From an uncultured Gammaproteobacteria bacterium (GTDB taxonomy: Bacteria > Patescibacteriota > Microgenomatia > UBA1406 > GWC2-37-13), in contig CAYWLV010000001.1 of assembly GCA_964459595.1 (NCBI GenBank), forward strand, positions 84,056 through 148,055: a stretch of DNA of 64,000 nt, in the 5' to 3' direction. Of the stretch, positions 18,621 through 63,930 are shown piece by piece. A program made the position numbers and the translations under genes. How positions within the stretch are numbered: the first letter of the stretch is position 1; each line of letters opens with the position of its first letter. Under the pieces are notes generated by a model, which was given only the letters and a program-made list of their open reading frames with translations, had not been told where the DNA came from and made no database searches.

Positions 18621-19721
18621 ATGACCAAAATATTTATTTCAGGATCAATGGCCTACGATGATATTATGGTCTTTCCACATCATTTTAAAGACTACTTTCA
18701 TCCGGAAAAACTACATCAAATAAATGTGTCATTTGCAGTCAGCGAATTGGCAAAACATTTGGGAGGAATTGCCACAAATGTGAGTTATGCGCTACGAAAT
18801 ACATGTGATTATTACGTGCAAAATCCTAAATCCCAAACACTAAATCCTAAACAAACCCCAAATTCTAAATCAAAAATAAATCAAGACGGGAACATTTCAA
18901 TTTATCCCGTGGGGGCGGTGGGGAGAGATGGCGATTTGCTTCTTGATTTTTTTAAAAAGAATTCAATAGACAGCTCATACGTACTCAAAGATGAAAAACT
19001 CTATACGGCAACGGGAAAAGTGATTACAGACATGAATGATAATCAAATATGGGGGTTTTACTACGGGGCCTGTTGCATAAATCCTAAACTCGAAACCCTA
19101 AAAACAAAACAAATGGATCAAAATTCCAAATCCCAAAAAGAGGATCAGTTTTGGATTGTGTCTGCGACGCATGAGAAGCCGTTCACCACTGTTCTCCGAC
19201 ATGTTATTCAAAATAAACTCCCCTACATGTTTGATCCCGGTATGGCCCTCACCTGGATCCGAGATGATTTGCTTAAAAAAGGAGTGCTGAACGCAACATA
19301 CGTTGTTGGTAATGATTACGAGATTGCAATGATAGAAAAACGATTGAAGATGAGTGTAGTGGAGATAGTGAAGGGCGGAGTGAATGTGATCACAACACTG
19401 GGAGAAAAAGGCGTGAAATACGATGAGGTACTAAATGAAGAAATGAAGAAATATCCAAATGAAAAAATAAATATATCTCACAAGACTCACGCTGTAGTGA
19501 AGGCGGTGAGAGTGAGGAAGGTAGTTGATCCTACCGGAGCAGGTGATGCATGGAGAGGTGGATTTGTGGGAGCGCTAGTTGCAGGTAAGTCTATTCGCGA
19601 GTGCTTAGTGATGGGAAATGTGATGTCGAGTTTTGCGGTGCAGGCGATGGGGACGGTGGAGTATAAGGCAGAGAGGAAAGAGATAGAAAAACGAATAAAA
19701 ACTCTAAACCCTAAACAATAA
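18621..19721 (+). CDS. PfkB-family carbohydrate/nucleoside kinase (adenosine-kinase candidate) with low-complexity inserts
   Basis: C-terminal DPTGAGDAWRGGF (PfkB signature 2). It lies next to ahcY. The last codons (KTLNPKQ*) read into a repeat arm. Confidence 0.7.
   Translation: MTKIFISGSMAYDDIMVFPHHFKDYFHPEKLHQINVSFAVSELAKHLGGIATNVSYALRNTCDYYVQNPKSQTLNPKQTPNSKSKINQDGNISIYPVGAVGRDGDLLLDFFKKNSIDSSYVLKDEKLYTATGKVITDMNDNQIWGFYYGACCINPKLETLKTKQMDQNSKSQKEDQFWIVSATHEKPFTTVLRHVIQNKLPYMFDPGMALTWIRDDLLKKGVLNATYVVGNDYEIAMIEKRLKMSVVEIVKGGVNVITTLGEKGVKYDEVLNEEMKKYPNEKINISHKTHAVVKAVRVRKVVDPTGAGDAWRGGFVGALVAGKSIRECLVMGNVMSSFAVQAMGTVEYKAERKEIEKRIKTLNPKQ
18818..18886. repeat. In-frame CTAAAYY-type heptamer tract in the PfkB kinase gene
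   Basis: aaatcct|aaatccc|aaacact|aaatcct|aaacaaa... encodes QNPKSQTLNPKQTPNSKSKINQ. Confidence 0.7.
19077..19140. repeat. In-frame CTAAAYY-type heptamer tract in the PfkB kinase gene
   Basis: ataaatcctaaactcgaaaccctaaaaacaaaacaaatggatcaaaattccaaatcccaaaaag encodes INPKLETLKTKQMDQNSKSQK. Confidence 0.65.
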
Positions 19722-19826
19722 ACTCTAAACAAATAAATACAAAATTCTAAATCTTAAATATAAAGATTTGAAATTTAGTATTTAATAATTTGATTAGGAT
19801 TGAGGGTTTAGTATTTAGAATTTATA
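19699..19826. repeat. Family-A heptamer hairpin element (CTAAAYY arm / RRTTTAG arm), copy A1
   Basis: Left arm aactctaaaccctaaac..ctctaaac, box aaataaatacaaaa at 19731-19744, inner palindrome aaatctt/aagattt at 19749-19769, right arm gattaggattgagggtttagtatttagaattt. Confidence 0.75.
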
Positions 19827-19835
19827 GTTAATCTT

Positions 19836-21116
19836 ATGACCTACGATGTGAAGGATATCAACTTGGCGGATTCTGGAAAACAGTTAATCGAGTGGGCGGA
19901 GAGAGAAATGCCGGTGCTTCGCCTTATTAAAAAACGATTTGCAAAAGAAAAGCCACTCAAGGGAGTGACTCTTGCAGCATGCCTTCATGTAACAAGTGAA
20001 ACAGCAAACCTCATGAGAACACTGAAAGCCGGAGGAGCAAATGTATGTTTAGCAGCAAGCAATCCCCTTTCCACAAATGATGCAGTGGCGGCAGCACTCG
20101 TGAAGGAATATGATATTCCCACATTTGCAATAAAAGGAGAAGATAACAAAACATACTTTAAGCACTTGAATGCCACACTCGATTTCAAACCAAATATGAC
20201 AATGGATGATGGTGCAGATTTGGTGAGCATTTTGCACACCACTCGAAAAGAACTTCTCAAAGGGGTGGTAGGTAGCAATGAAGAAACAACAACGGGGGTG
20301 ATTCGCTTGCGCGCAATGGAAAAAGATAAGGCGCTCAAAATCCCAGTTTTGGCAGTGAATGATAATCTCACAAAGCACATGTTTGATAATCAATATGGAA
20401 CGGGACAAAGCACACTGGACGGCGTGATTCGCGCCACCAACATGCTTCTTGCCGGCCGCAACTTTGTTGTGGTTGGGTATGGATGGTGTGGACGAGGACT
20501 CGCACGACGAGCACAAGGAATGGGAAGTCATGTGATTGTGTGTGAAGTGGATGCTGTAAAAGCGCTTGAGGCGAGAATGGATGGATACCGTGTGATGCCA
20601 CTTGTGGAAGCAATGGCGATTGCAGATGTGGTGGTCACTGTTACCGGAGACAAACATGTGATAGACACCCCTCACATTAAAGCAGCAAAAGATGGGCTTA
20701 TTCTTGCAAACTCAGGACATTTTGATGTGGAGATAAACAAAGTTGCCATGAAAAAGCTTTCAAAAAGCATTCGCACGGTGCGCCCATTTGTGGAAGAGTA
20801 TCTACTAGAAGACAGAAGTAAGAAGACAGAAATAAGAACCAAAAAAATATATCTGTTGGCAGACGGACGACTGGTGAACCTCGGCAGTGCTGAAGGACAC
20901 CCTGCGAGCGTAATGGATATGAGCTTTGCTGGGCAAGCATTGGGAAGTGAATATATGTGGAAGAATAAGGGGAAGTTTGAAAATAAAGTATATTCCCTAC
21001 CTGCTAATGTGGATCAAGAAATAGCTGCACTCAAACTGAAAAGTGAGGGTGTAGAAATTGACAAGCTTACCGCTGAGCAGAAAGAATATTTGAATAGCTG
21101 GAAGGAAGGAACGTAA
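19836..21116 (+). CDS. ahcY: Adenosylhomocysteinase
   Basis: [22 protein letters not shown]...[10 protein letters not shown]...[17 protein letters not shown]; full-length match to the family. Confidence 0.95.
20806..20840. repeat. In-frame AGAAGAY-type heptamer tract in ahcY
   Basis: tagaagacagaagtaagaagacagaaataagaacc encodes [12 protein letters not shown]. The 21-mer at 20806-20826 is identical to the intergenic 44146-44166. Confidence 0.75.
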
Positions 21117-21123
21117 GTTCCTT

Positions 21124-21191
21124 AACAAATCCTAAATTCTAAACTCTAAATCCTAAGCAAATAAAACAAAAATCTTAAATCTTAAAGATTT
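21124..21191. repeat. Family-A element A2: left arm, box and inner palindrome
   Basis: aaatcctaaattctaaactctaaatcctaagcaaataaaacaaaaatcttaaatcttaaagattt is colinear with A1. The palindrome aaatctt-a-aagattt lies at 21177-21191. Confidence 0.7.
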
Positions 21192-21570
21192 TCGGATTGC
21201 TCGCTTTTGAAGACTTGAGTATTCCTCCTAAGATGAGGGACAATTCGTGAGTTTCTTTCCACAGAGTACGAAGTGATTCCTTTCTATCTGGAAATTCAAC
21301 TGCCAATAATCGAATCCAATAGAGTGTTTCTTTACTTTCTTTTCTAGAAATAGATACTTTATTTATGAAATCTTTTTTGCTATCGCAGGCATTTGCCTCC
21401 ATGTAATTAGCTCCAATACTTGTTCCACTTCTGAGTAGTTGGTCAATGAGGGGGCGAGAAATTGTAGAGATTGTTAAGGACTTACAAAATAGAATTAATT
21501 TTTCACTAAAAATGGAAACACGCTCTTCTAGATTGTATGTTTTTGTAATTGTTTTAATATTTTGCCCCAT
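21175..21570 (-). CDS. Four-helix-bundle protein (23S rRNA intervening-sequence protein family)
   Basis: RSGTSIGANYMEANACDSKKDFINKVSISRKESKETLYWIRLL is the characteristic core of this family. The gene is nested between the two halves of repeat A2. Confidence 0.8.
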   Translation of the reverse strand: MGQNIKTITKTYNLEERVSIFSEKLILFCKSLTISTISRPLIDQLLRSGTSIGANYMEANACDSKKDFINKVSISRKESKETLYWIRLLAVEFPDRKESLRTLWKETHELSLILGGILKSSKASNPKIFKI

Positions 21571-21607
21571 TTGTTTAGAGTTTAGGATTTAATATTTAGA
21601 GTTTACC
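21571..21607. repeat. Family-A element A2: right arm
   Basis: ttgtttagagtttaggatttaatatttagagtttacc starts immediately after the ATG of the nested gene. Confidence 0.7.
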
Positions 21608-21626
21608 GCTATCCGATTTCCCTAGT

Positions 21627-21648
21627 CAACGGTTTATAAGCCGCAAAT
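21627..21648. repeat. Short palindromic motif, copy 1 (caacggtttataagccgcaaat)
   Basis: It is the reverse complement of 35872-35893 with one mismatch. The core is cggYttataagccg. Confidence 0.6.
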
Positions 21649-21714
21649 GAGATCGATTAGGTTGATGGAGCTGGATAAAAAAGAGGTTAGCGGTCTAGAG
21701 TCCAGGGTCTTTTT

Positions 21715-23215: not shown

Positions 23216-24645
23216 ATTAATCTTCTTGGTAAAACCCACCCACTCTTTTTTGCAGTTTCCATCCGAAGCAATCTCTTTTTACTTCTCTTTTTTTCTTTTA
23301 ATGCATTTGCGATGGCGAGGGCCCAGTCGGTATGTGACTTTGGAGTATAGAGAAGCCCTTTGGCAACTGCAGCGGTTGCCGAAGGGGCAACAATTGGTTT
23401 TCCGGAAGCGAGATAAAGCGGAAGCTCGGGATGATTGAATACGGTGGATTTATCATATTTAAAAGGCGATATGAGAATATCAAAAGACTGCAAGAATAGG
23501 GGTAGTTTTTTATAGGGCTGCTTCCCTACAGGAAAAATATTGGGAGACTTCTCTGCAACTTCTATAACCGGGCGATAATCGGTATTTCCCACAAGCACAA
23601 TCGATGCGGTGGGAAATGAAGCGGCAAGTTTGAATAGCAAATCTTCATCTATTTTTTCATCAAGTGTGCCGATATAGCCCATTACTGGTTTTTTGATCCA
23701 ACATAAACCCACATCGCATGTTTGAATCATTTTAGAAGTATCTTTAAACGCATCCCAATCGACACCATTTTTTACGAGAATATCTCTTTTATCGCGAAAG
23801 AGCGCTATATGGGGAGCAGTCAGAAGTTCGGCATGTTTTATACATTTCTTTTCGGCCTTAACTATATGTTTTCCAGCTGCTCCTGTTTGAATAAATCCAT
23901 ACGCATTATCATATGTGTATGTGTATTTTTTCAGTGGGAAAATAAGAGACCAGAATGGGTGGTGGAGATAAGTGATTGATGGTCGATGGTCTTTGGTCGC
24001 AAGCTGGAGGGATTTTTTGAGGAATGCAACTTCTTTTCGTGAAGGATTTTGATAGTTGAGATGAAGAATCTTTTTTGCAGTGAGTCGAATGGCAGTAAAG
24101 TTTGGAAATGATTCGATAATCCGAAATCCGGGACGACTTCCCTCATCAAACACGCCCTCGATATAAGTGACGGGAACTTTTTCAGAAAGTTTCTGAGAAA
24201 TCTGAACTGATCGAGATTGAAAGTCCGAAGAATCAGTAGTGCCAAAGATAATATATGAGTTTATTTTGCGAGATTTTATTTGAGCATAAGATTTCTTGTC
24301 TAGTTTACCCTGAGCCTGCCGAAAAGATCGAAAAGACACCAATGTCCTTATATATTTGAAAAAATATAGTACATATGCATAAGGAGTCTTTCTTAAGATA
24401 TGGAGCCATTTCTTTTTGCGCAAAAGCGAGAGAATAGATTTTTGCTTGAGTAAAAGCATTGGAACTTCTTCATTTTTAGACCGAACAAATATCTTTTTTA
24501 TATCCTGCCCCGCAAAATAAAATGCGGAGAAAAACTCAAAGATGAGAGACGAATCATGCAGCGAGAGAGAAGATCGAAGTTGCTCCACTTCAAGGTATAA
24601 GAGCTTTTCTTGTTCTATAAGATTTTTCAGAATTGGCTTTTTCAT
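23197..24645 (-). CDS. Putative glycosyltransferase (GT-B, TuaH-like C-terminal half) with an N-terminal extension
   Basis: The C-terminal half GYIGTLDEKIDEDLL..IVLVGNTDY...PVGKQPYKKLPLFLQSFDILISPF resembles GT1/GT4-type enzymes. Confidence 0.45.
   Translation of the reverse strand: MKKPILKNLIEQEKLLYLEVEQLRSSLSLHDSSLIFEFFSAFYFAGQDIKKIFVRSKNEEVPMLLLKQKSILSLLRKKKWLHILRKTPYAYVLYFFKYIRTLVSFRSFRQAQGKLDKKSYAQIKSRKINSYIIFGTTDSSDFQSRSVQISQKLSEKVPVTYIEGVFDEGSRPGFRIIESFPNFTAIRLTAKKILHLNYQNPSRKEVAFLKKSLQLATKDHRPSITYLHHPFWSLIFPLKKYTYTYDNAYGFIQTGAAGKHIVKAEKKCIKHAELLTAPHIALFRDKRDILVKNGVDWDAFKDTSKMIQTCDVGLCWIKKPVMGYIGTLDEKIDEDLLFKLAASFPTASIVLVGNTDYRPVIEVAEKSPNIFPVGKQPYKKLPLFLQSFDILISPFKYDKSTVFNHPELPLYLASGKPIVAPSATAAVAKGLLYTPKSHTDWALAIANALKEKKRSKKRLLRMETAKKSGWVLPRRLIYKKSE
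23972..24004. repeat. In-frame heptamer tract (GGTCG flavour)
   Basis: gtgattgatggtcgatggtctttggtcgcaagc encodes LATKDHRPSITY. Confidence 0.5.
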
Positions 24646-24676: not shown

Positions 24677-24802
24677 CTAAATCCTAAACTCTAAATTCTA
24701 AACCCTAAACTAAGATACGCAAAAATCAAAATTTCTAAAACAATTAAATTTTGGATTTAATCTTTTGAGAATTAGGTTTTAGGGTTTAGGATTTAGAATT
24801 TA
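24677..24802. repeat. Family-A heptamer hairpin element A3
   Basis: The left arm ctaaatc|ctaaact|ctaaatt|ctaaacc|ctaaact has perfect period 7. The right arm is attaggt|tttaggg|tttagga|tttagaa. Confidence 0.8.
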
Positions 24803-24833
24803 TCTCGCTTCGTTTCGTGTATAATATAAAGCT

Positions 24834-26267: not shown

Positions 26268-26269
26268 GA

Positions 26270-26384
26270 AACCTAAACCCTAAACAATAATCTCTAAACA
26301 AATAAATACAAAAATTTCAAATTTTTGACTTATTTTTCAGATTTGGGATTTGATTAGGTTTTAGAATTTAGAGTTTAGAATTTT
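26270..26384. repeat. Family-A heptamer hairpin element A4
   Basis: Left arm aacctaaaccctaaac...tctctaaac, box aaataaatacaaaa at 26300-26313, right arm gattaggttttagaatttagagtttagaatttt. Confidence 0.75.
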
Positions 26385-26390: not shown

Positions 26391-28202
26391 ATGTCCTCTA
26401 TTCGCAACTTCGCAATTATCGCGCATGTAGACCATGGCAAGAGCACTCTTGCTGATCGTTTATTGGAGTTAACCGGAGTTGTATCTGCTGGAAACCATGA
26501 AGAACAGATGCTCGATCGCAATCCTGTCTCGCGTGAACGTGGTATCACCATAAAACTTGCACCGGTAAAGATGATATATAGAAGACAGAAGATAGAAGAA
26601 AGAAGTATGAATGACTCAAATCTAGATTCTGACTTCACTATTCTGAATTTAATAGATACACCTGGACATGTGGACTTTTCCTATGAAGTAGACCGAACAC
26701 TAGCCTGTGTGGATGGGGTGATTTTACTTGTTGATGCGACACAGGGGATACAAGCACAAACAATCGCCAATGCCTATAAAGCTCTTGAGAAAAATCTTGT
26801 CATTATTCCAGTCATCAATAAAATTGATATGCCGGGAGCTGAGGTTGAGAAAACAAGAAAACAGATTATGGACTTTCTGGGTATCCGGGCAGATGAAATG
26901 TATGAAATATCAGCAAAAACCGGAGAAGGAGTGCAAAAGGTATTAGATGCAGTGATTGAAAAAATTCCAGCACCGACAATTTTAGAACACAACTTAAAAG
27001 ATACACAGAACGAAGAACGGAGAACGACGAACTTTAAGCTACAAGCTCTCATTTTTGACTCATATTACGATACTCACAAAGGCGTGATTGCATTTGTACG
27101 CGTGTTTGGCGGCTCGATAAAACGAGGAATGACAGTAAAAATGGCTCATGAAGGGGGCACGTTTATTGTGTCTGAAGTGGGGATTTTCAAACCAGATCTC
27201 ACCACAACCGAAGAAGTAAAAGATGGAGAAATAGGCTATGTTGCCACCAATTTAAAAGATATTCATGCAATTCAAATTGGAGACACAATGCAACTTCCCA
27301 AAGATGATACTCCTCCCCTTCCTGGGTATAAAAAAGTGAAGCCGATGGTGTATGCAAGTATCTTTCCTACAGATACAAACGATTATCTCAATTTTAAAAA
27401 AGCACTAGAAAAGTTATATCTCACAGATAGCGCCCTCGACTTTAGTGGTATATACAGTACGGCGCTTGGTGCAGGATTTCGCGTGGGATTCTTGGGATTA
27501 CTTCATGCAGATGTTGTACGAGAACGACTTGAACGCGAATATGAGCTGAGCCTTGTTCTTACCCCCCCACAAGTAGAGTTCAAAATAGAAGATGGACGTT
27601 TTTTTGAGCCGATTGTAAAAATATTTATTTATACTCCAGAAAACTACACGGGAGCCGTTATGAAAGTGTGTGAAGAACATCGGGCCAAATTTATCACCAT
27701 GGACAATACCAATCAAATTGCACTCACTTATGAGATGCCACTAGCTGAGCTTATCACCGACTTTTTTGATCAACTGAAAAGCAAAACAAGCGGTTATGCT
27801 TCACTCGATTGGGAAATTCTTCGTTATGAGATGGCAGATGCAAATAAAATGGAACTACTTATCAACAATGATCCCGTTGAAGAGTTCTCAGAAATTGTAG
27901 TAACGGAACGAGCACAAGAGAAAGCGCAGTTTCTCACCAAGCGTTTAAAAGACCTCATCCCTCGTCAACAGTATGAAGTAAAAATTCAAGCAAAATATAA
28001 AGGAAAGATTATTGCTAGTGAGCGGATATCGCCATTTAGAAAAAATGTATTAATTCATAATAGTAAGGTAGTGGGGGCGGGAGACGTGGGAAGAAAAAAT
28101 AAGTTATTGGAAAAGCAAAAAGAGGGTAAAAAACTCATGAAAGCTGTAGGGAAAGTGGAAATCCCGAAAGATGCGTTTATGAAACTCTTCAAAAAGGATT
28201 AA
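26391..28202 (+). CDS. lepA: Translation elongation factor 4
   Basis: IRNFAIIAHVDHGKSTLADRLL...LIDTPGHVDF...C-terminal KLLEKQKEGKKLMK. The G domain holds two low-complexity inserts. Confidence 0.95.
   Translation: MSSIRNFAIIAHVDHGKSTLADRLLELTGVVSAGNHEEQMLDRNPVSRERGITIKLAPVKMIYRRQKIEERSMNDSNLDSDFTILNLIDTPGHVDFSYEVDRTLACVDGVILLVDATQGIQAQTIANAYKALEKNLVIIPVINKIDMPGAEVEKTRKQIMDFLGIRADEMYEISAKTGEGVQKVLDAVIEKIPAPTILEHNLKDTQNEERRTTNFKLQALIFDSYYDTHKGVIAFVRVFGGSIKRGMTVKMAHEGGTFIVSEVGIFKPDLTTTEEVKDGEIGYVATNLKDIHAIQIGDTMQLPKDDTPPLPGYKKVKPMVYASIFPTDTNDYLNFKKALEKLYLTDSALDFSGIYSTALGAGFRVGFLGLLHADVVRERLEREYELSLVLTPPQVEFKIEDGRFFEPIVKIFIYTPENYTGAVMKVCEEHRAKFITMDNTNQIALTYEMPLAELITDFFDQLKSKTSGYASLDWEILRYEMADANKMELLINNDPVEEFSEIVVTERAQEKAQFLTKRLKDLIPRQQYEVKIQAKYKGKIIASERISPFRKNVLIHNSKVVGAGDVGRKNKLLEKQKEGKKLMKAVGKVEIPKDAFMKLFKKD
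26579..26610. repeat. In-frame AGAAGAY-type heptamer tract in lepA
   Basis: tagaagacagaagatagaagaaagaagtatg encodes RRQKIEERSM. It shares tagaagacagaag with 20806 and 44146. Confidence 0.65.
27005..27032. repeat. In-frame heptamer tract (AGAACGN) in lepA
   Basis: cagaacg|aagaacg|gagaacg|acgaact encodes TQNEERRTTN. Confidence 0.6.
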
Positions 28203-28230: not shown

Positions 28231-28354
28231 CAATTTTTAATTTTAAATTATTAATTTCTAATCAATAGTTAATGACTTAATTTTTAAAAAGTTTATAAAT
28301 TAAAATATAGTTAAAAATTAAAAATTAGATATTAAAAATTAAGATGAAAATTAG
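28231..28354. repeat. Family-B AT-only heptamer hairpin element B1
   Basis: T-rich left arm caatttttaattttaaattattaattt and A-rich right arm ttaaaaa|ttaaaaa|ttagata|ttaaaaa|ttaagat. Confidence 0.65.
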
Positions 28355-28357: not shown

Positions 28358-29314
28358 TTAGCTTGCTATAAAGTACTTCTTAAAGTAAGTTCTTTGACGT
28401 TTTGCATACTGTACTTCTTTTGTCGCCCACTGACGTTTTGCCTCAGTCAGCGATAGCTCATTATTATGATATGCAATGAGCTGTCGATATCCCAAGGCGT
28501 TTAACCCTGGATCTGTTGCTCTATATCCCTCATCAAGAAGCTTGTGTACCTCCTCAAGTGCTCCCTGCTCTATTCGTTGCTCTACACGAAGGGTGATTTT
28601 TTCATGTGCAATTTCTTGATTTAGGTGAAAAAATGGAAGATATGAAATCGATACAGCCTCTTGCACACCTCGGAGGTGTGTAAGGCGGGAGGTGAGGGTT
28701 TCTTGCGTATTATGGGGTGGAAGAGAGGTTAATCCCGCTTGAGCAATCTCTATTCTGCGTATGAGTCTTTGTGAGTTGTTGCGATCACTGTTATTAAGTT
28801 CAACGAGAAGTTGTTTATTTTCCTTTTCAAGAATTGATTGCAGCTCTTCAATCGTTTTGCCCTGTAATGATTTGCGAAGATCCCAATTTTCCTGCACTCC
28901 AATATTTGGTGTACCAAAGAGCAGATGACGCAGATAGTAGCCTGTACCTCCAACTAGAATCGGAGTTTTACCTCGACCAATTATATCTTTAATTACCGAC
29001 TCTGCTATCGTGCAATAGTCAGAAGATGAAAAAGGGATTTTAGGATCAACAATATCATACAGCCAAACCTTTGCTGAATGCTGAAAGGCTGAGGAGGAAA
29101 GCTCATAATATCCAATTTCATATTTTTCTTTTGTTAAACTTTGAACTTTAAACCTTGAACTTTTAGCTATGTCTTTTCCAGTGATGATATCAAGTTTTTT
29201 ATAGATTTGTCGAGAATCAAAGTTTACAATTTCACCATTATGAGTGGCTGTAAGTTCGAGAGCTTTGGCAGATTTTCCGGTCGCCGTTTGACCGAAAAGG
29301 ACGAAGACATTCAT
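28358..29314 (-). CDS. miaA: tRNA dimethylallyltransferase
   Basis: VLFGQTATGKSAKALEL...LVGGTGYYLRHLL. It contains an in-frame REP copy. Confidence 0.9.
   Translation of the reverse strand: MNVFVLFGQTATGKSAKALELTATHNGEIVNFDSRQIYKKLDIITGKDIAKSSRFKVQSLTKEKYEIGYYELSSSAFQHSAKVWLYDIVDPKIPFSSSDYCTIAESVIKDIIGRGKTPILVGGTGYYLRHLLFGTPNIGVQENWDLRKSLQGKTIEELQSILEKENKQLLVELNNSDRNNSQRLIRRIEIAQAGLTSLPPHNTQETLTSRLTHLRGVQEAVSISYLPFFHLNQEIAHEKITLRVEQRIEQGALEEVHKLLDEGYRATDPGLNALGYRQLIAYHNNELSLTEAKRQWATKEVQYAKRQRTYFKKYFIAS
28664..28683. repeat. REP palindrome, copy 3, in frame inside miaA
   Basis: cacacctcggaggtgtgtaa is identical to the copies at 35804-35823 and 36584-36603. It encodes LTHLRGV on the minus strand. 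Confidence 0.8.
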
Positions 29315-29322: not shown

Positions 29323-29450
29323 TAAATCCTAAATCCTAAAAACTAAATCCTAATCAAACCCTAAATAAAAAATATCAAACACTAAAAGAAATATTTTAGG
29401 ATTTGAGACTTTGTATTTATTTTTATAGAGTTTAGGGTTTAGGATTCAGA
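29323..29450. repeat. Family-A heptamer hairpin element A5
   Basis: Left arm aaatcct|aaatcct|aaaaact|aaatcct, reversed box near 29411-29424, right arm tagagtttagggtttaggattcaga. Confidence 0.75.
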
Positions 29451-29458
29451 GTCTGTAT

Positions 29459-30331: not shown

Positions 30332-30393
30332 TTGTGTACGTGAATTATACCACAAATACAGCTAAAAAGCGAGACTATAGGAGGGCTTTTAAA

Positions 30394-30516
30394 ACACTAA
30401 ATCCTAAAAACTAAACCCTAAACAAATCCTAAATAGGTACAAAATAGGCGCTAAATACCTGTCGATTAGATTTTGGCAAATTTGAATAAAATTTATGATT
30501 TAGGATTTAGTGTTTG
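30394..30516. repeat. Family-A heptamer hairpin element A6
   Basis: Left arm acactaaatcctaaaaactaaaccctaaacaaatcctaaat, right arm atgatttaggatttagtgtttg. Confidence 0.7.
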
Positions 30517-49884: not shown

Positions 49885-49908
49885 AGATGTAGTATACCAA
49901 AAGATACA

Positions 49909-50016
49909 TTAAACTCTAAACACTAAACTCTAAACTTTAAAATCTAAACTTTAAACAAATCCTACATTATAAATTCAAATTTTAAACGAAAACGGATAGG
50001 GTTTAGAATTTAGGAT
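49909..50016. repeat. Family-A heptamer hairpin element A13
   Basis: Left arm ttaaact|ctaaaca|ctaaact|ctaaact|ttaaaat|ctaaact|ttaaaca, right arm gatagggtttagaatttaggatg. Confidence 0.7.
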
Positions 50017-50077
50017 GAAATACTTCACTTCTGATGCTGTATACTGATGGTATCTAAAAATTTTAATAGACTATCTT

Positions 50078-51742: not shown

Positions 51743-51873
51743 AAATTAGTTTTAGATTCTGTCACTCGTAATTTCCCCCACCAGTACTCAAAAAGCTTCG
51801 AAGCCTGCTGGCCGAACTTTTTTCCGTGCTGATGGGCACCCTTTACTCGTGCCACCTAAAACTTTTTATCATT

Positions 51874-51925
51874 CAATAATTTAAAATTATTTAATAATTT
51901 AAAATTTAATATTAAAAATTAATTT
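51874..51925. repeat. Family-B AT-only heptamer tract B3
   Basis: caataatttaaaattatttaataatttaaaatttaatattaaaaattaattt lies directly upstream of recR. Confidence 0.5.
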
Positions 51926-52561: not shown

Positions 52562-52569
52562 TAATAAAT

Positions 52570-52690
52570 ACTAAACCCCAAATCTTAAACTCTAAACAAA
52601 TCCCAAATTATAAATCCTAAAAAATAATAATTTAGAGTTTGCTATTTTGCATTAATTTGATTAGGATTTAGTGTTTAAGATTTAGGGTTT
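52570..52690. repeat. Family-A heptamer hairpin element A14
   Basis: Left arm actaaaccccaaatcttaaactctaaacaaatcccaaat, right arm gattaggatttagtgtttaagatttagggttt. Confidence 0.75.
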
Positions 52691-52700
52691 CATTAGACAC

Positions 52701-55606: not shown

Positions 55607-55650
55607 AGCCCATAGTATACACTACTATAGGCTTAAAGTCAATCAGGGAT

Positions 55651-55902: not shown

Positions 55903-55934
55903 AAGTAAAGAAATAAATTATTAATAAAACGTTA

Positions 55935-56037
55935 AAATCTAGACGCTAAATTCTAAACAAGTCCTAATTTAAAAACTCTAAATTCTTACATAAAAATTTT
56001 ATTTATTTAGGATTTATAGTTTATTGTTTAGGGTTTT
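55935..56037. repeat. Family-A heptamer hairpin element A15 (right arm overlaps the dnaX 3' end)
   Basis: Left arm aaaatctagacgctaaattctaaacaagtcctaat, right arm tttaggatttatagtttattgtttagggttttg. The dnaX C-terminus KTLNNKL* is encoded by the arm. Confidence 0.65.
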
Positions 56038-57084
56038 GTTTTCTCCTGATCTTATTCTATCACAATACTCCAGTAAAGACACATGGAGCGGGATACTGGG
56101 AAATGGACTCATCTTGATGAGTCCATAGGCTTCATTAATGAGCTTCATTAAAATAATTGTTTCTTTGAGTGAGAATGAGAGAGTTGAGACATTTCCCTGC
56201 ACCTTATGAAGAAATAACAGATGGTTTTGAAGATCAATCAGGAGTTCTTCGATGAGAAGTGGGATGTTTCCTCCCCCCAAATCAAATTCTTTCAACCAGG
56301 TAAGAATGAGTGCGCTATTTTTTTTCTGCAAGTTGTCGTAAAGCGCTTGCTTTGAGCGAATACCAAGTGAATGAATGAGAGATGTTTCATCTGTATGACC
56401 GGATAAGACCATCTCCTCAAGAATTTTTGCGCCATCACGAAAAGAGCGATCACAATGTGTTGCGATGATTGATAAGGATTTATCTGAAAGAGTGAGCTTT
56501 TCGTGTTTTGCAATGCGCGAGAGCATATGCACAATCTCGTTTACTTGGGCATGTCCAAACTGAACAAGAACACAGCGACTCTGAATTGTTTTAGGAACTT
56601 TTTCAAGATTGGTGGTTGCGAGGATAAATATCACTGTTTCAGGCGGCTCTTCCAACGTTTTGAGAAGTGCATTAAACCCATCGTTTGTGATCATATGAGC
56701 TTCATCGATGATATAAACTCGGTATTTTCCGGCCATTGGCATGAGAGACGTTTCACGAATAAGTTCTTTTACTTCGTTGATTCCTCGATTTGATGCTGCA
56801 TCCATTTCTGTAACATCCGAAAAGGAAGATTTGTCTATAGCATTACAATGTGCACATGCATTACAAGGTTCCACTGAGCTCCCTTTTCCTCCATATGCAT
56901 TTTGTAGGCAGTTTACTGCCTTTGCAAATATGCGGGCAGCTGACGTTTTTCCTGTTCCTTTATGGCCAACAAATAGAAAAGCGTGGGGAAGTGATTTGCT
57001 TTGGAGAATTGAGAGAAGTGACTGTCGTGGAGTTGTGTTGTCAAGTTCTTCGATAGTATGGGGGCGATACTTTAGGTAATACAT
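56014..57084 (-). CDS. dnaX: DNA polymerase III subunit gamma/tau, short form (domains I-III only)
   Basis: YLKYRPHTIEELDN...FLFVGHKGTGKTSAARIFAKAVNC...Zn module C..C..C...YIIDEAHM; 356 aa. Confidence 0.92.
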   Translation of the reverse strand: MYYLKYRPHTIEELDNTTPRQSLLSILQSKSLPHAFLFVGHKGTGKTSAARIFAKAVNCLQNAYGGKGSSVEPCNACAHCNAIDKSSFSDVTEMDAASNRGINEVKELIRETSLMPMAGKYRVYIIDEAHMITNDGFNALLKTLEEPPETVIFILATTNLEKVPKTIQSRCVLVQFGHAQVNEIVHMLSRIAKHEKLTLSDKSLSIIATHCDRSFRDGAKILEEMVLSGHTDETSLIHSLGIRSKQALYDNLQKKNSALILTWLKEFDLGGGNIPLLIEELLIDLQNHLLFLHKVQGNVSTLSFSLKETIILMKLINEAYGLIKMSPFPSIPLHVSLLEYCDRIRSGENKTLNNKL

Positions 57085-57097: not shown

Positions 57098-57217
57098 CAA
57101 ACTCTAGACTCTAGACAGTAAGCACTAAATTCTAATTTACAAAACCCAAATAAAATAATACAAAATTCGAAAATCTAATAATCATATTTAGTACTTGTAG
57201 TTTAGGATTTAGAGTTT
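57098..57217. repeat. Family-A heptamer hairpin element A16
   Basis: Left arm caaactctagactctagac..cactaaattctaat, right arm tagtttaggatttagagttta. It abuts the ybeY-like stop. Confidence 0.7.
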
Positions 57218-57566
57218 ATTTGAGTAGGTTTTTCATCCCATGGATGATGAGTTCATCAATTAAAGAATCCAGTCGTTTATTCCGTTCTGCAGCAAGAAGG
57301 ACTATTTGTGGATAGCACAAAAAAATCTCGCCCAGAAGTGGTTCTTCCATATCTGTATCTGTACGATACGGAAAAGCCAAAACGGGAAGAGCTACATCTT
57401 CATGCTTATATACGGATGCAATTCGTCTCATCTTGGTTTTACCCACAAAAATGAGAGTGATAGAAAGAGTAGGATCAATATGGAGTTCTGTAGTAGTTTT
57501 CTCCACACAACTCTTAATACGTTTTCTGTCGATAAGATATCGAGACGAGGTGATGATATGTATCAT
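57216..57566 (-). CDS. YbeY-like protein lacking the C-terminal metal-binding His triad
   Basis: The YbeY-like core is IFVGKTKMRRIASVYKHEDVALPVLAFPY...LGEIFLCYP. The protein ends IHGMKNLLK*, whereas YbeY has HG.LHL.GYDH. Confidence 0.6.
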   Translation of the reverse strand: MIHIITSSRYLIDRKRIKSCVEKTTTELHIDPTLSITLIFVGKTKMRRIASVYKHEDVALPVLAFPYRTDTDMEEPLLGEIFLCYPQIVLLAAERNKRLDSLIDELIIHGMKNLLK

Positions 57567-57574
57567 AAAGCTTT

Positions 57575-57805
57575 TTATCTGAGATGCATTGCTGTTCTTT
57601 CTTTCTTAGTAGACAATGCAAATCTTCGTCTGCGAGCACGAAGACGAATACGCTCTTTTGCTTCATCCTTCAATCGTAGAGATGGCTTTTTGTAATATTG
57701 CTTTTTTCGAAGCTCATCAACAATATTCTCATCCATAAACATACGAGAGAATTTTCTGAAAATCGCGTCTTTTGTTTCTCCTTTTTTCTTGAATATAACA
57801 ACCAT
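57575..57805 (-). CDS. rpsU: 30S ribosomal protein S21
   Basis: 76 aa, basic; ..AIFRKFSRMF..ENIVDELRKKQYYKKPS..RLK fits the S21 pattern (R.F.R......G......R...YEKP). Confidence 0.75.
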   Translation of the reverse strand: MVVIFKKKGETKDAIFRKFSRMFMDENIVDELRKKQYYKKPSLRLKDEAKERIRLRARRRRFALSTKKERTAMHLR

Positions 57806-57833
57806 TATATATACACCTCCTCAAAATATATGT

Positions 57834-57946
57834 AAACTCTAAATCCTAAACTCTAAACAAATTAAAAATCTTAAATCTAAAACCTCAAACAACTAATTTT
57901 AGAATTTTACATCTAATTGTTTAGAATTTAGGGTTTAAGATTTAGT
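57834..57946. repeat. Family-A heptamer hairpin element A17
   Basis: Left arm aaactct|aaatcct|aaactct|aaacaaa, right arm gtttagaatttagggtttaagatttag. Confidence 0.75.
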
Positions 57947-57968
57947 TTTTTTTGTTATCCCTATTGTA

Positions 57969-58807: not shown

Positions 58808-58931
58808 AAAACTCTAAACTCTAAACGCTAAACCCTAAACAAATCATAAATCCTAAATCTGAATACCTAAATATTTCTAATTAAGAATTTTGACCTTTTT
58901 GACTGAGATTTAGTGTTTAGTATTTAGGATT
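58808..58931. repeat. Family-A heptamer hairpin element A18
   Basis: Left arm aaaactc|taaactc|taaacgc|taaaccc|taaacaa, right arm gagatttagtgtttagtatttaggattt. It overlaps the proS stop. Confidence 0.75.
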
Positions 58932-60624
58932 TTTTAAATTCAAGCATTAACTTATCAACAGTAACAAGCTTCACTTCCTTTTCCCCTCTTTTTTTCATCT
59001 CGATCATCTCCCCTGTTTTTGGGGAAATGACAAGTCGATAGGGGCACCCGACAAGATCTGCATCTGCAAATTTGGCACCGGGTGATACATCGGTGCGATC
59101 GTCAAAGAGTATCTCAAGATGGTAGTTAGTAGAAAGTAGTTGGTAGAGGGTATGAGCTTTTTCGAAGGGAGCTGAATCTTTACCGATTGCGATTAAATGG
59201 ATTTTGTACGGTGCAATATTTTCAGGCCATTTTATACCTCGTTCATCATGATGCTGCTCCACAATTGTGGCCAGAGTTCGTCCGATTCCTATTCCGTAGC
59301 AACCCATATAATATGGCTTATCTGTGCCATCGGCATCTTTAAACACGGCATTATTCATGAGTTTTGTGTAGTGATATCCGAGCTGAAAAATGTTTCCCAC
59401 TTCAATCCCCTTTTTCATGATAAGTTTTTTACCATCTGGCGTAATATCTCCTTCTTTTGCAAGTGCGATATCAGCAAGTTTTTCACAGGTAAAGTCACGT
59501 CCATAGTTTACGTTAATGGTGTCTGTTGTTTCTTCTTTTTGACCCCCAATAAAATTTTTGACTGTGGTGAGTGAGATATCTCCAATATAGCGAGCACCGG
59601 TATGACCCCATGAGTGTACATACCCTCGTTTTGTACCAATTGCACTAAGGTCTTCCTCTGTTGCTGGTTCGAGCTGTCCCACTGCATTGAGTGCGTGCTC
59701 TAGTTTGATTTTATTAACTTCCAAGTCTCCCCTCATTACGGCTATAATTATTTCTTTGTTTACTCTATTTTTAAACACAACATTTTTAAGAAAGTGAGCA
59801 GAATTTTTTTTATAATGCTTTTCATTATCTTCCATGGTTTGAACCCATGCAGGCTGCTGTATAGTTTCAACTGGCTTTTCTTCCTCTTGTGAATTAATCT
59901 CTGTTCTTTGAAAGATGGCAACATCTTCGTGTGCATTATATACTCCGTCTGTAGTTGAGAGATAATTTGTTTCTCCAATGGGTGAGTCTACGACATATTC
60001 ATGACAATATTCTCCTCCGATATACCCACCATCAGACTCAACGATTACTGTATCAAGTCCGAGCCTTTTAAAAATACGGGTGTAGGTATCCCCCATTTTT
60101 TTATATTCTTTCTTAAACTCTTCAGAATTAATATCAAAAGAATATGCATCTTTCATGATAAACTCACGTACTCGCAGTAACCCACCTCGCGCTCTCATTT
60201 CGTCTCTAAACTTTGAGGAGAATTGGTAGATATTAATTGGCAATTCTTTGTAACTAATTTGAAACTTTCTGATAACATCTACAAACATTTCTTCAGCAGT
60301 ACCACCGAGGGCAAACTCAGCTCCTCGTCTATCTTTTATCTGCATAAGTTCAAATCCTGCTGTATTTGTGCGATTAGTTTCTTTCCATAGTTCAAGCGGA
60401 TGAAGTACGGGTGACACCATTTCTTGTGCACCGGCTGCGTCCATTTCTTCCTTAACAATTTTCATAATATTTTGTTGCAGCTTCATGCCAAGGGGGAGAA
60501 AGAAGAATCTTCCTGCTGTTGATTCACGAATATAGCCGGCTTGATAGAGAAGCTTATAGGAGTCCATTGTTGCGTCGGAAGGTGCTTCACGGACTGTTTT
60601 TCCAAAGAGTTTAGAATATAACAT
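58924..60624 (-). CDS. proS: Proline--tRNA ligase (bacterial type)
   Basis: MLYSKLFGKTVREAPSDA...AGYIRESTAGRFFFLPLG...FRDEMRARGGLLRVREF. Confidence 0.95.
   Translation of the reverse strand: MLYSKLFGKTVREAPSDATMDSYKLLYQAGYIRESTAGRFFFLPLGMKLQQNIMKIVKEEMDAAGAQEMVSPVLHPLELWKETNRTNTAGFELMQIKDRRGAEFALGGTAEEMFVDVIRKFQISYKELPINIYQFSSKFRDEMRARGGLLRVREFIMKDAYSFDINSEEFKKEYKKMGDTYTRIFKRLGLDTVIVESDGGYIGGEYCHEYVVDSPIGETNYLSTTDGVYNAHEDVAIFQRTEINSQEEEKPVETIQQPAWVQTMEDNEKHYKKNSAHFLKNVVFKNRVNKEIIIAVMRGDLEVNKIKLEHALNAVGQLEPATEEDLSAIGTKRGYVHSWGHTGARYIGDISLTTVKNFIGGQKEETTDTINVNYGRDFTCEKLADIALAKEGDITPDGKKLIMKKGIEVGNIFQLGYHYTKLMNNAVFKDADGTDKPYYMGCYGIGIGRTLATIVEQHHDERGIKWPENIAPYKIHLIAIGKDSAPFEKAHTLYQLLSTNYHLEILFDDRTDVSPGAKFADADLVGCPYRLVISPKTGEMIEMKKRGEKEVKLVTVDKLMLEFKKS
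59121..59150. repeat. Heptamer-type tract (GTTAGTA/GTTGGTA) in frame in proS
   Basis: ggtagttagtagaaagtagttggtagaggg encodes LYQLLSTNYH. It shares 11- and 12-mers with 9391-9424 and resembles the intergenic 60661-60683. Confidence 0.5.
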
Positions 60625-61200: not shown

Positions 61201-61297
61201 GTTTAATTTTAAATTTTTAAGTTTTAATTTTTAATTAATTTTTTAATTTAAAAATTAATTAATTAATAATTAATTAAAAATTTAAAATAGTACTTAA
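61201..61297. repeat. Family-B AT-only heptamer hairpin element B4
   Basis: T-rich left arm gtttaattttaaatttttaagttttaatttttaatt, A-rich right arm aaaaattaattaattaataattaattaaaaatttaaaat. Confidence 0.65.
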
Positions 61298-61300
61298 AAA

Positions 61301-61861
61301 TTATTTACCAAAGGCTCCCTTATATTTTAATTTATCCAATACTTTCCCTACTGTCTCCATTGGTCCACATCCATATGTGTCTACTACGAGGTCATAATAT
61401 TTAGGTGCCCAAAAATCATAGTCTCCATAAAGTTTTTTCCATTTATCAATATTTTCAGTTTCTCTTTGGCGAATCCATTTCTTTGCATCATCAACCGATA
61501 CATTTTCACGATTCATTACCCGGTCTACACGCACTTCATCGTGCGAACAAAAAACAAGCACTTTGAGAACTCCAGGAATATCTCGGGCAACAAATCCAGA
61601 AAGCCAAGCTTCATAAATAAGTTGGTTTTCTTCTGTAAGCATTTTTTTCGTCATTGCTTCAATACTCTTTTCATGATCGTCACTTCTAGATGCAGCTCCT
61701 TGCATATTTTCATGAATTCCATGCATTCTGTCATATTCTCGTTGAATAAACCCGGCATTAATATGCTTCCAGCCAAGAATGGTTTGAAGATTGCGAGAGA
61801 GAGTAGTGGTACCAACTGCGACTTTTCCAGAGACGGTTATGTTTTTGTAGGTGTTTTCCAT
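61301..61861 (-). CDS. Cytidylate-kinase-like paralog with a degenerate P-loop
   Basis: ITVSGKVAVGTTTLS has Thr where the Walker A Lys should be. The rest is colinear with 60676-61200 (AWLSGF..GVLKVL..). Confidence 0.5.
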   Translation of the reverse strand: MENTYKNITVSGKVAVGTTTLSRNLQTILGWKHINAGFIQREYDRMHGIHENMQGAASRSDDHEKSIEAMTKKMLTEENQLIYEAWLSGFVARDIPGVLKVLVFCSHDEVRVDRVMNRENVSVDDAKKWIRQRETENIDKWKKLYGDYDFWAPKYYDLVVDTYGCGPMETVGKVLDKLKYKGAFGK

Positions 61862-61878
61862 GATTTAGTATACAGGAA

Positions 61879-61961
61879 AAATTTAATTTTTAAATTTTAA
61901 TTTTTTAATAACTATTAATTTTTAAATTAAATCATTAAAAATTGAATAGAAATTAAAAATT
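61879..61961. repeat. Family-B AT-only heptamer hairpin element B5
   Basis: Left arm aaatttaatttttaaattttaattttttaat, right arm ttaaattaaatcattaaaaattgaatagaaattaaaaatta. Confidence 0.6.
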
Positions 61962-63156: not shown

Positions 63157-63158
63157 AT

Positions 63159-63286
63159 AAGTCTGAAAGTCTAAAAGTTGTAAAGTCTAAGATCAAAAAG
63201 CACGCGACTTAGATAATACATTATACACATGGAGAATTGATTATTGACTGACTTTATGACCTTAAGACTTTCAGACTTTTGACTTG
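63159..63286. repeat. Family-C heptamer hairpin element (AAGTCTR arm / YAGACTT arm)
   Basis: Left arm aagtctgaaagtctaaaagttgtaaagtctaaga, right arm ccttaagactttcagacttttgactt. Confidence 0.7.
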
Positions 63287-63291
63287 AACAG

Positions 63292-63846
63292 TTACACTTC
63301 CTGTATCTCTGCTTCTTTTGCTGATTTTATTGAGGCTATGTCTTCGTTTGCCTTTTGTGTGAGAGTATCGATTTCCTTTTCCATTCGGTATTTGTCGTCT
63401 TCTGTAATTTCTTTTTTATCAAATTGATCCTTAATTTTCTTTCGAATATCATCGCGATGATTGCGAATAATATTGCGTTTTTCCTCTATCATTTGACCTA
63501 CAAGCTTACCAAATTTATCTCTTTGTTCTTGGGACATAGGAGGAATTCGAATTGTGATTCTGGTGCCTTGTGTTTGTGGTGAAATTCCCAGAGGACTCTT
63601 CAAAATACCCTTTTCTATATCGATTATCGTTGAAGGGTCAAATGGCGCAATAAGAAGTGCGCTTGCACCATCTGTAGTGATTGTTGACAACTCTTTTAAT
63701 CGAAGTTTTGTTGAGCCTCCATATGTGTCAATAATAATATCTTCAATCATTGCTGGATTTGCTCGACCTGTACGAATAGCTTTTAGCTCCTCTTTGAGAG
63801 CATTAATTGTTTGTTGGAGGTTTAATTTGAATGAAGCGAGATCCAT
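63292..63846 (-). CDS. frr: Ribosome recycling factor
   Basis: LKEELKAIRTGRANPAMIEDI...ISPQTQGTRITIRIPPMSQEQR... Confidence 0.95.
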   Translation of the reverse strand: MDLASFKLNLQQTINALKEELKAIRTGRANPAMIEDIIIDTYGGSTKLRLKELSTITTDGASALLIAPFDPSTIIDIEKGILKSPLGISPQTQGTRITIRIPPMSQEQRDKFGKLVGQMIEEKRNIIRNHRDDIRKKIKDQFDKKEITEDDKYRMEKEIDTLTQKANEDIASIKSAKEAEIQEV

Positions 63847-63859
63847 AGTTTCTCAATTA

Positions 63860-63930
63860 CAAATTTTTAATTTATAATTTTTAATTAATTATTAAATTAT
63901 TTAAAAATTTAAAATTTAAAATTAAAAATT
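63860..63930. repeat. Family-B AT-only heptamer hairpin element B6
   Basis: Left arm caaatttttaatttataatttttaatt, right arm aaaaatttaaaatttaaaattaaaaattaa. Confidence 0.6.

Follow-up and report, generated by a model that had tools for sequence, protein, structure and literature searches.

The 64,000-nt stretch analysed here (the window; positions 84,056 to 148,055 of contig CAYWLV010000001.1, assembly GCA_964459595.1) carries, in nearly all intergenic spacers past 19.7 kb, hairpins built from tandem heptanucleotides, and among them one unit in which the arms of such a hairpin enclose a gene for a four-helix-bundle protein. The G+C content of the window is about 37%, and it contains the conserved genes pyk, lepA, miaA, folD, gyrA, ppa, gyrB, rplL and rplJ, in an order kept in its relatives. 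Relatives were sampled as loci with homologues of ppa (33226-33738, minus strand); a look-up of the identical Ppa protein gave no record. The closest matches, with 92-94% amino acid identity, come from metagenome-assembled genomes (MAGs) labelled Microgenomates or Candidatus Roizmanbacteria, and a further 76 matched loci belong mostly to the same group. The ppa matches together with the shared gene order therefore identify the window as a chromosome segment of the Candidate Phyla Radiation (CPR; Patescibacteria), assigned to Candidatus Roizmanbacteria. An Rfam scan of the window returned tRNA-Pro as its only match and no rRNA gene. Loci fetched for comparison are designated below by L-numbers.

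The original prediction, made from the letters of the window alone, held that heptamer hairpins fill almost every spacer past 19.7 kb, and this was borne out. Tandem Repeats Finder (TRF) detected about 60 arrays of period 7 or 14 in the window, nearly all in these spacers, and an element was present in about 28 of the 31 spacers of at least 60 nt, as tallied from the spacer sequences. For the 32 spacers after 19.7 kb taken together (4231 nt), the lag-7 analysis proposed in the prediction gave an identity of 0.46 against 0.316 ± 0.007 in 200 dinucleotide-preserving shuffles (z = 19.9). At lag 14 the pooled z was 13, and coding DNA had a lag-7 identity of 0.264. In most single spacers lag-7 identity was 0.45-0.67, with adjacent lags near 0.3, and strict lag-7 arrays comprised 868 nt of the window, compared with 0-94 nt for the other lags between 4 and 12. 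The anticipated excess of folding over shuffled controls was found in several spacers, with RNAfold z scores down to -7.9, -6.3, -5.7 and -4.5, but it was uneven: about half of the spacers had z of -2 or lower, and in the pure A/T flavour B the excess was mostly not significant.

The flavour (CTAAAYY)n...(RRTTTAG)n, termed family A, was searched with an nhmmer profile built from a MAFFT alignment of its copies. The profile recovered 16 complete two-armed copies as well as a split copy (E-values from 1e-8 to 1e-23) and, in addition, single arms, which is taken as matching the 17 copies and one single arm counted earlier. The alignment holds more than the heptamer, namely (CTAAAYY)n-CTCTAAACAAAT ... 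ATTTGATTAGGATTTAG-(RRTTTAG)n, and family A is a true family with a shared, non-trivial consensus. The perfect 10-bp inner stem reported at 33155-33177 is present, with 33155-33164 paired to 33168-33177. The other flavours are likewise heptameric, as had been stated for all of them, but flavour C (AAAGTCTG) has a period of 8, and its copy at 45714-45764 (lag-8 identity 0.56 vs. lag-7 identity 0.38) is one-armed. The glycan locus at 1-17 kb does lack copies, as noted before, but mainly because it contains only one spacer of at least 60 nt. The elements are not an artefact of this contig or its assembly, since family A and other heptamer-hairpin flavours recur in independent MAGs. An origin from contaminating plant-type telomere repeats (CCCTAAA) was rejected, the arrays being degenerate, intergenic, many-flavoured and embedded in bacterial synteny. 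The features of the window are listed in Table 1.

Table 1. Heptamer hairpins, arrays and the gene-bearing unit in the window (positions are those of the window).
Feature	Position	Strand	Evidence or details
Family A, ORF-less hairpin	19699-19824		nhmmer E = 1.2e-19; fold
Family A, ORF-less, divergent spacer	24677-24801		nhmmer E = 1.9e-17; spacer z = -3.6
Family A, ORF-less, pyk-lepA spacer	26268-26384		nhmmer E = 3.7e-19
Family A, ORF-less, folD-miaA spacer	29323-29455		nhmmer E = 6.7e-19; z = -4.5
Family A, ORF-less, gyrA-folD spacer	30391-30516		nhmmer E = 2e-17
Family A, ORF-less, ppa-gyrA spacer, perfect 10-bp inner stem	33108-33220		nhmmer E = 4.2e-22; z = -6.3
Family A, short	38781-38863		nhmmer E = 6.6e-10
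Family A, same spacer filled in L005 (4127-4240)	41182-41304		nhmmer E = 1.2e-18
Family A	42600-42720		nhmmer E = 2.5e-10
Family A	49446-49563		nhmmer E = 7.8e-13
Family A, divergent spacer, left arm long, right arm short	49906-50017		nhmmer E = 4e-12; TRF 6.7 x TAAACTC
Family A, convergent spacer	52565-52691		nhmmer E = 2.1e-23; z = -4.5
Family A	55926-56038		nhmmer E = 1e-14
Family A, downstream of ybeY	57098-57218		nhmmer E = 1.5e-11
Family A	57832-57951		nhmmer E = 1.3e-18
Family A	58808-58932		nhmmer E = 1.4e-22
Solo family-A arm, (CTAAACT) x 3	44998-45018		TRF
Gene-bearing family-A element	21126-21605	-	upstream arm 21571-21605; ORF 21175-21570 (131 aa); downstream arm 21126-21160
Putative promoter of gene-bearing unit	21606-21660	-	TTGACT, 18 nt, TAAACT; -10 coincides with the upstream arm's first heptamer
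Family-A-like arm inside PfkB ORF	18820-18889	+	nhmmer E = 6.8e-5; translation
Second family-A-like array inside PfkB ORF	19078-19160	+	nhmmer E = 6.3e-5; translation
Flavour B, (TTAATTT)n...(AAATTAA)n	28232-28342		TRF; repeat families D5 and D8
Flavour B	33741-33801		TRF; repeat families
Flavour B	51857-51925		TRF; repeat families
Flavour B	61202-61303		TRF; spacer fold; repeat families
Flavour B	61878-61950		TRF; spacer fold; repeat families
Flavour B	63862-63932		TRF; repeat families
Flavour C, two-armed, period 8 (AAGTCTGA / GACTTTAA)	63159-63279		TRF; z = -4.2
Flavour C, one-armed array, period 8	45714-45764		TRF; lag identities
Flavour D, (AGAAGAY)n hairpin	44140-44205		z = -7.9; TRF
Flavour E, (AACTTGC)n hairpin, rplJ-rplL spacer	38040-38110		z = -3.3; TRF

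The strongest clue to the nature of these elements is a gene, overlooked in the original prediction, that lies within the split family-A copy at 21.1-21.6 kb. The family-A profile gave half-matches at 21126-21209 and 21546-21605. Spacers hold complete two-armed elements apart from the two that adjoin ORF 21175-21570: the spacer 21117-21174 has a left arm only, and the spacer 21571-21714 starts with a right arm only. The open reading frame (ORF) between them matches Pfam PF05635 with 54.3 bits (cutoff 33.8), TIGR02436 ("four helix bundle protein") with 76.6 bits (cutoff 24) and PDB entry 2RLD with E = 8.8e-15. Family PF05635 is that of S23p, the "23S rRNA intervening sequence protein," a relative of Avd. 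Since an intact ORF of this family stands between two lone arms, the split copy is a family-A element whose loop contains a gene. The unit has the hallmarks of an intervening sequence (IVS), i.e., a PF05635/TIGR02436 ORF and complementary terminal arms enclosing it, except that no copy lies in 23S rRNA (helix 25 or 45), all being located between or within protein-coding genes. The other 16 complete copies have no ORF. As in MITEs (miniature transposable elements with inverted repeats), they share their termini and junction motifs (CTCTAAACAAAT ... ATTTGNTTAGGATTTAG) with the gene-bearing element, according to nhmmer and the alignment, and relative to an IVS-type element they can only be derivatives.

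Locus L081 carries the same unit (76% amino acid and 72% nucleotide identity, including the family-A arms) among different neighbouring genes. The hexamers upstream of the gene in the window are consistent with a promoter, and the layout in L081 is alike (TTGTCA, 17 nt, TAAACT), the -10 hexamer again coinciding with the first heptamer. A 20-nt motif, CAACGG[C/T]TTATAAGCCGCAA, stands beside the unit in the window (21625-21650), with its reverse complement at 35870-35895, upstream of a gene for a transposase of the REP-associated tyrosine transposase (RAYT; REP, repetitive extragenic palindromic) type; L081 has GCGGCTTATAG at the equivalent site upstream of its unit.

Comparison with relatives indicates how the elements reached their positions. 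When ORFs from 80 relatives were paired with the genes of the window, the orthologous spacers were found to be short, with medians of 22 nt for pyk-lepA (n = 20; 123 nt in the window), 0 nt for miaA-folD (n = 49; 144 nt), 22 nt for folD-gyrA (n = 57; 172 nt), 20 nt for gyrA-ppa (n = 58; 127 nt) and 33 nt for ppa-gyrB (n = 63; 72 nt). The elements of the window are therefore insertions. Long spacers of the relatives hold other palindromes, many of them two-armed heptamer hairpins whose units differ by species, e.g., TAGTGAN, CAAAATT, ACAAATA and CTAACTA, and across the 80 loci period 7 stands above every other lag. The distribution of family A is patchy: it occurs once or twice each in L002, L004, L005, L038 and L041, a copy in L005 filling the same spacer as a copy of the window, and is absent from the two closest relatives.

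Four roles had been proposed for the hairpins, as transcription terminators, mRNA stabilisers, RNase III processing sites or MITE-like mobile DNA, and the last of these is favoured by the shared consensus, the short spacers of the relatives, the patchy spread and the gene-bearing counterpart. The stems are A/U-rich and 20-40 bp long, and possess neither the short G+C-rich stem nor the U-tract that define a Rho-independent terminator. The only classical terminator is located downstream of rplL (approximately 37560-37600), in agreement with the earlier report of a single one, and a scan of 39-59 kb found no enrichment of classical terminator-like sites (16 vs. 14.8 expected). Only two complete family-A copies lie in truly divergent spacers (24677-24801 and 49906-50017), because the plus-strand ORF 57306-57695 is spurious, the real gene being ybeY (57216-57566) on the minus strand. 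Cognate arm duplexes are no stronger than non-cognate ones (-25.2 vs. -25.3 kcal/mol, p = 0.45), so that selection for an RNA structure finds no support in arm covariation. Terminator, stabiliser and RNase III functions are plausible as consequences only.

The association between the four-helix gene and inverted arrays extends far beyond the window. Of 80 metagenomic loci fetched with homologues of the gene, both flanks were available for 70. A cross-flank score was defined as that of the best inverted repeat joining the upstream 130 nt to the downstream 130 nt, and flanks were considered paired if it exceeded the within-flank scores by more than 5. The mean cross-flank score was 19.0, compared to 8-9 within a single flank, and paired flanks were found for 49 of the 70 homologues vs. 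9 of 172 controls, i.e., genes that have a spacer of at least 60 nt on either side. The nine paired controls include the four-helix gene of L005 and a RAYT gene with its own REPs. The upstream arm has a period of 7 in 43 of 48 loci, and the arms mostly start 0-30 nt from the start and stop codons. In the relatives L005 and L032, too, heptamer arrays enclose the four-helix homologue, but in flavours other than A. Nearly all metagenomic four-helix loci use an AATTTTN flavour, which makes flavour-sharing with other arrays of the same locus uninformative. Three other small genes with inverted-repeat flanks were seen in relatives, encoding a GIY-YIG nuclease (L033, 5907-6200), a PaaX_M/Cas2-like protein (L041, 2004-2612) and a Trp-repressor-like protein (L028, 4121-4558); they may be further cargos of such loops.

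A tblastn search of the plasmids in PLSDB yielded 29 records, mainly from Nostoc (15), Planktothrix, Anabaena and other filamentous cyanobacteria. Among 14 plasmid loci inspected, representing five phyla (hosts Nostoc, Planktothrix, Gloeocapsa, Euhalothece, Bernardetia, Treponema, Chlorohelix and Monoglobus), flanks were paired in 11 and had period 7 in 10. The gene is enclosed by (AATTCAA)4 and (TTTTGAA)4 in Nostoc flagelliforme, by (AATTCGT)4 and (TTACGAA)4 in Nostoc sp. C052, and by (CAATTCG)4 and (TTGCGAA)4 in N. punctiforme. Planktothrix has (AATCCCC)(AATCGTA) arrays with their complements, Bernardetia (TTAGTGA)16 and (TCACTAA), Gloeocapsa (TTTTAGA) and (TCTAAAA), and Euhalothece (CTGGTCA)14, and analogous arrays are present in Treponema, Chlorohelix and a Monoglobus pseudogene copy. 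In the 50 kb (49 genes) of N. punctiforme plasmid pNPUN02 that were scanned there are just two strict lag-7 arrays, and both flank the four-helix gene. An ORF-less two-armed form, (CAATTCG)5...(TTGCGAA)3, occurs in Nostoc, and solo arrays are also present, e.g., (TTACGAA)9 in Fremyella.

Gene and arrays move as one unit. An occupied site of N. flagelliforme (L161) differs from the empty site of Nostoc ATCC 53789 (L176), where there is no array, by about 505 inserted nt. This insertion spans the gene and its two arrays, and an 11-bp direct duplication (TGGAGTTGGGT) lies at its borders. The array-gene-array unit of pNPUN02 (about 460 nt) recurs elsewhere at 85-88% identity in unrelated contexts, one copy splitting a cytosine methyltransferase gene, and empty versions of the pNPUN02 site have no arrays. 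In the empty-site comparison for L165 the flanks were divergent and gave no clean junction. The unit is thus kept across phyla and in varied contexts, and empty sites have neither its gene nor its arrays. Four-helix units are often located inside defence and transport operons (L166, L170, L172, L173, L169, and L164), namely between cas2 and cas1, upstream of cas1, between the genes of an RND adaptor and its permease, between hsdS and hsdR (a pseudogene copy) and between helicase and methylase genes.

These observations bear on an origin of the hairpins in place, whereby 7-nt replication slippage would have produced the arrays, template switching or selection as AU-rich terminator substitutes would have produced the inverted arms, and the four-helix gene would be incidental. 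Over-representation of heptamer simple sequence repeats is documented and has been ascribed to polymerase slippage (PMC4679880, PMC4692102), and such an origin would also accommodate the arrays inside ORFs, the single-copy flavours, the many species-specific flavours of the relatives and the lack of enrichment of classical terminators. It leaves unexplained the bracketing that is specific to four-helix genes, the confinement of arrays, over 50 kb of pNPUN02, to the flanks of that gene, the arrays that travel with the gene and are missing from empty sites, and the junction motifs shared by family-A copies beyond the heptamer. Selection for termination would, moreover, have to account for the two complete copies in divergent spacers, where there is nothing to terminate, and for the missing U-tract and arm covariation. 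An origin in place is considered unlikely.

The heptamers vary widely among close relatives, and the protein motif SGTSIGANY-EA is constant. This constrains the proposal that the arrays are binding sites of the four-helix protein, constituting a regulon or a nucleoid or RNA-chaperone system, in which the flanks of the gene would be autoregulatory and the elements functional rather than selfish. In its favour are the tight association of gene and arrays, the 7-nt period, which stays constant over unrelated sequences and suggests a ruler of protein or mechanistic nature, and the homologue Avd, which binds nucleic acid and a reverse transcriptase. Against it are the variable heptamers at a constant protein motif, the behaviour of the unit as an insertion into genes and operons, and the lack of elements in orthologous spacers of relatives. 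A binding-site function is quite unlikely.

The window also encodes a candidate mobility enzyme for palindromic repeats. The product of ORF 35930-36571 (213 aa) matches Y1_Tnp and, with 77.5 bits, falls just below the cutoff of 80 for the NCBIfam model "REP-associated tyrosine transposase" (REP_Tyr_transpos). REPINs, the elements mobilised together with RAYTs, are inverted pairs of REPs that form hairpins, and the heptamer hairpins could in principle be elements of the REP/REPIN type moved by this enzyme. The RAYT gene is, however, flanked by a different palindrome, CACACCTCGGAGGTGTGTAA (35800-35823 and 36580-36603), and not by heptamer arrays; the RAYT homologue of L048 likewise stands between its own inverted repeats, and the closest relative, L001, retains RAYT without family A. 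Since the RAYT has REP palindromes of its own, its link to the heptamer hairpins was rejected, and this origin is highly improbable. A third copy of CACACCTCGGAGGTGTGTAA lies within the miaA ORF (28660-28683). Relative to L004, the region from gyrB to rplL has gained the RAYT gene and, with it, a membrane-transport gene (36621-37538).

Overall, the hairpins are best explained as miniature, gene-less copies, amplified in this lineage, of an IVS-type selfish element, the full unit of which is a PF05635/TIGR02436 gene between inverted heptamer arrays; the probability of this explanation is estimated at roughly 0.6. The best reading of its class is an IVS-type selfish element located outside rRNA, with miniature derivatives, the IVS kind itself being already known. 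The same arms occur on ORF-less and gene-bearing copies, the elements are insertions, and the gene-array module is both specific and general. Several points weigh against this explanation. The four-helix protein, the sole gene product of the unit, matched no transposase family in Pfam or NCBIfam, whereas the parent of a MITE should encode a transposase; no mobility enzyme was found for the unit, and the protein has no known catalytic activity. ORF-less and ORF-bearing copies are alike only in their arms, where the low complexity of the heptamers makes common descent inseparable from convergence, and the equal stability of cognate and non-cognate duplexes adds nothing in its favour. For flavours B to E, the 64-kb window contains no gene-bearing partner, and the single-copy flavours (D and E) and the arrays within ORFs fit local slippage equally well. 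Target-site duplication was found in a single pair of occupied and empty sites, and the comparison of L162 with L178 revealed replacement of a cassette, without duplication.

If the hairpins have this origin, miniatures would arise by loss of the gene from the loop and spread as MITE-like DNA. Replication slippage could resize the arms in 7-nt steps, which would explain both the degenerate, unequal arms of the window and the very long perfect arrays found elsewhere. Flavours B, C, D and E may derive from other units of this kind elsewhere in the genome. By analogy with the Coxiella IVS, transcribed arms could serve as RNase III substrates, so that read-through transcripts would be cut between genes. 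The outward-facing terminal hexamers TAGRRT and TAAACT could act as -10 boxes in an organism whose genes appear to be mostly leaderless, which may account for the tolerance of insertions between genes that once shared an operon.

The closest known system is the IVS of Coxiella burnetii 23S rRNA, which has been described as selfish, with an S23p ORF in its loop and a 28-bp terminal inverted-repeat stem, within which it is cleaved by RNase III (PMC4990558). It contains two or three tandem GACAGAT heptamers, their number varying between strains, and the IVS was earlier proposed to be mobile, with its ORF aiding mobility (PMC4990558). PF05635 proteins are homologous to Avd, the accessory protein of diversity-generating retroelements (DGRs) (PMC10053308). 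The IVSs of Coxiella and Leptospira resemble the unit of the window in the PF05635 four-helix ORF in the loop and the long terminal-repeat stem, and that of Coxiella also in the tandem heptamers of the stem region. Unlike them, the elements described here lie between protein genes and not in helix 25 or 45 of 23S rRNA, 16 of the 17 family-A copies are ORF-less, and the arms consist wholly of heptamers.

The short tandemly repeated repetitive (STRR) sequences of filamentous cyanobacteria are likewise intergenic tandem heptamers of many flavours, and the Nostoc, Planktothrix and Euhalothece plasmids have arrays of this kind flanking four-helix genes in inverted orientation. STRRs are described, however, as direct tandem arrays, and their host phylum and base composition differ from those of Candidatus Roizmanbacteria. 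Their described units (CCCCAGT, TTGGTCA and CAACAGT) are also different from those of the window. To our knowledge, STRR repeats have been unexplained since 1990. In Xanthomonas, 70-75 convergent inverted pairs of GGGAATC arrays are known, with no associated gene reported (Rehm et al., 2015; PMC4692102); these arrays are intergenic, can form stem-loops and vary in length among species, but have a single G-rich flavour and were studied as G-quadruplex formers. To say that inverted heptamer arms occur in none of the described families was thus too strong, in view of the Xanthomonas pairs (PMC4692102) and the Coxiella IVS stem (PMC4990558).

REP sequences, the bacterial interspersed mosaic elements composed of them and the REPIN-RAYT system share with the hairpins their abundance as intergenic palindromes, REPINs being inverted doublets, and the window has a RAYT-like gene. 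They differ in that REPs are not built of tandem heptamers and the RAYT of the window has a different REP of its own. The MITEs of Neisseria (Correia elements) and the palindromic elements of Rickettsia (RPE) are similarly palindromic and non-autonomous, have a length of about 100-150 nt and occur at many loci. RPEs also insert in frame into conserved genes, as seen here for PfkB, S-adenosylhomocysteine hydrolase (AdoHcyase) and LepA. For Correia elements, creation of promoters and cleavage by RNase III are known. In contrast to both, no transposase is recognisable in the parent element here, heptamer microsatellites take the place of unique terminal inverted repeats at the ends, and a target-site duplication (11 bp) was observed in one cyanobacterial case only.

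A broader proposal, put forward tentatively and at somewhat below even odds, is that the S23p, Avd-like family PF05635/TIGR02436 marks an unrecognised, phylum-spanning class of mobile elements with inverted heptamer-microsatellite ends. The 23S rRNA IVSs, the cyanobacterial STRRs, possibly the Xanthomonas GGGAATC pairs and the CPR hairpins would then be one system, in which the protein would recognise, maintain or propagate 7-nt arrays, possibly aided by a polymerase or reverse transcriptase of the host, in the manner of Avd and the reverse transcriptase of DGRs. If true, this would suggest an origin for the excess of heptanucleotide repeats in bacteria, including STRRs, and a testable genomic behaviour for a very large family of "hypothetical" four-helix-bundle genes, and the intervening sequence of 23S rRNA would be one insertion site of a general selfish element. 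It would also mean that a streamlined CPR genome of about 1 Mb can still be colonised in nearly every spacer, with its ancestral operons split and each gene apparently carrying its own leaderless promoter. Hairpins and in-frame insertions would explain odd low-complexity loops and over-extended ORF calls. A literature search, incomplete in coverage, found nothing on heptamer hairpins in CPR bacteria, and, within the same limits and as absence of evidence only, no link of four-helix genes to heptamers or STRRs beyond the paper on the Coxiella IVS.

Most genes of the window have an extended -10 motif (TGnTATAMT; TATAAT or TATACT) 6-8 nt before the start codon, without a Shine-Dalgarno sequence. 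Examples are located at 24817-24833, 44983-45000, 45035-45052, 49885-49900, 55607-55625 and 61862-61880. The position of the motif just before the start codon suggests leaderless mRNAs, with one promoter per gene. In four cases (lepA, miaA, gyrA and the gene for the four-helix protein), the -10-like hexamer closest to the gene belongs to a heptamer of the adjoining arm. By the -10 criterion, the longest-ORF starts at 29459, 41302, 48881, 52701 and 50078 are over-extended. The ORF 40459-41169, encoding a protein with an RF-1 domain, is short (236 aa), its PCRF domain matches profile positions 102-193 only, and it overlaps the start of an ORF for a transporter of the major facilitator superfamily (39228-40490); the starts of these genes have probably been called wrongly. 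Once the spurious plus-strand ORF is removed, the roughly 260 nt (57567-57830) that separate ybeY from the next element have no ORF call or family match. The spacer upstream of rplJ (38663-38780) corresponds to a structured motif conserved in about 40 relatives (CCTAAGACCCGGG...TTTCCCGGCGA), probably an L10-leader-like element; in the window this spacer gave nothing at the Rfam gathering threshold.

Heptamer arrays also occur inside conserved ORFs, two in PfkB (18820-18889 and 19078-19131, the latter extending to 19160 in Table 1), one in AdoHcyase (20806-20851) and one in LepA (26579-26624). The first PfkB array is read in frame as NPKSQTLNPKQTPNSKSK, with CAA replacing a would-be in-frame TAA. 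The arrays encode low-complexity loop insertions (NPKSQTLNPKQ... in PfkB and RRQKIEERS in LepA) in which TAA codons have become CAA, and a comparable array lies within an ORF of L081 (935-993). A separate 7-periodic repeat family (xGTCGxx), TTAGTCGAGAGTCGTTGGTCGCTAGC, is present in eight copies, including those at 506-531, 7845-7870, 7967-7992, 8168-8193, 8345-8370 and 23979-24004; four copies lie within a single minus-strand ORF (7372-8589) of the glycan locus.

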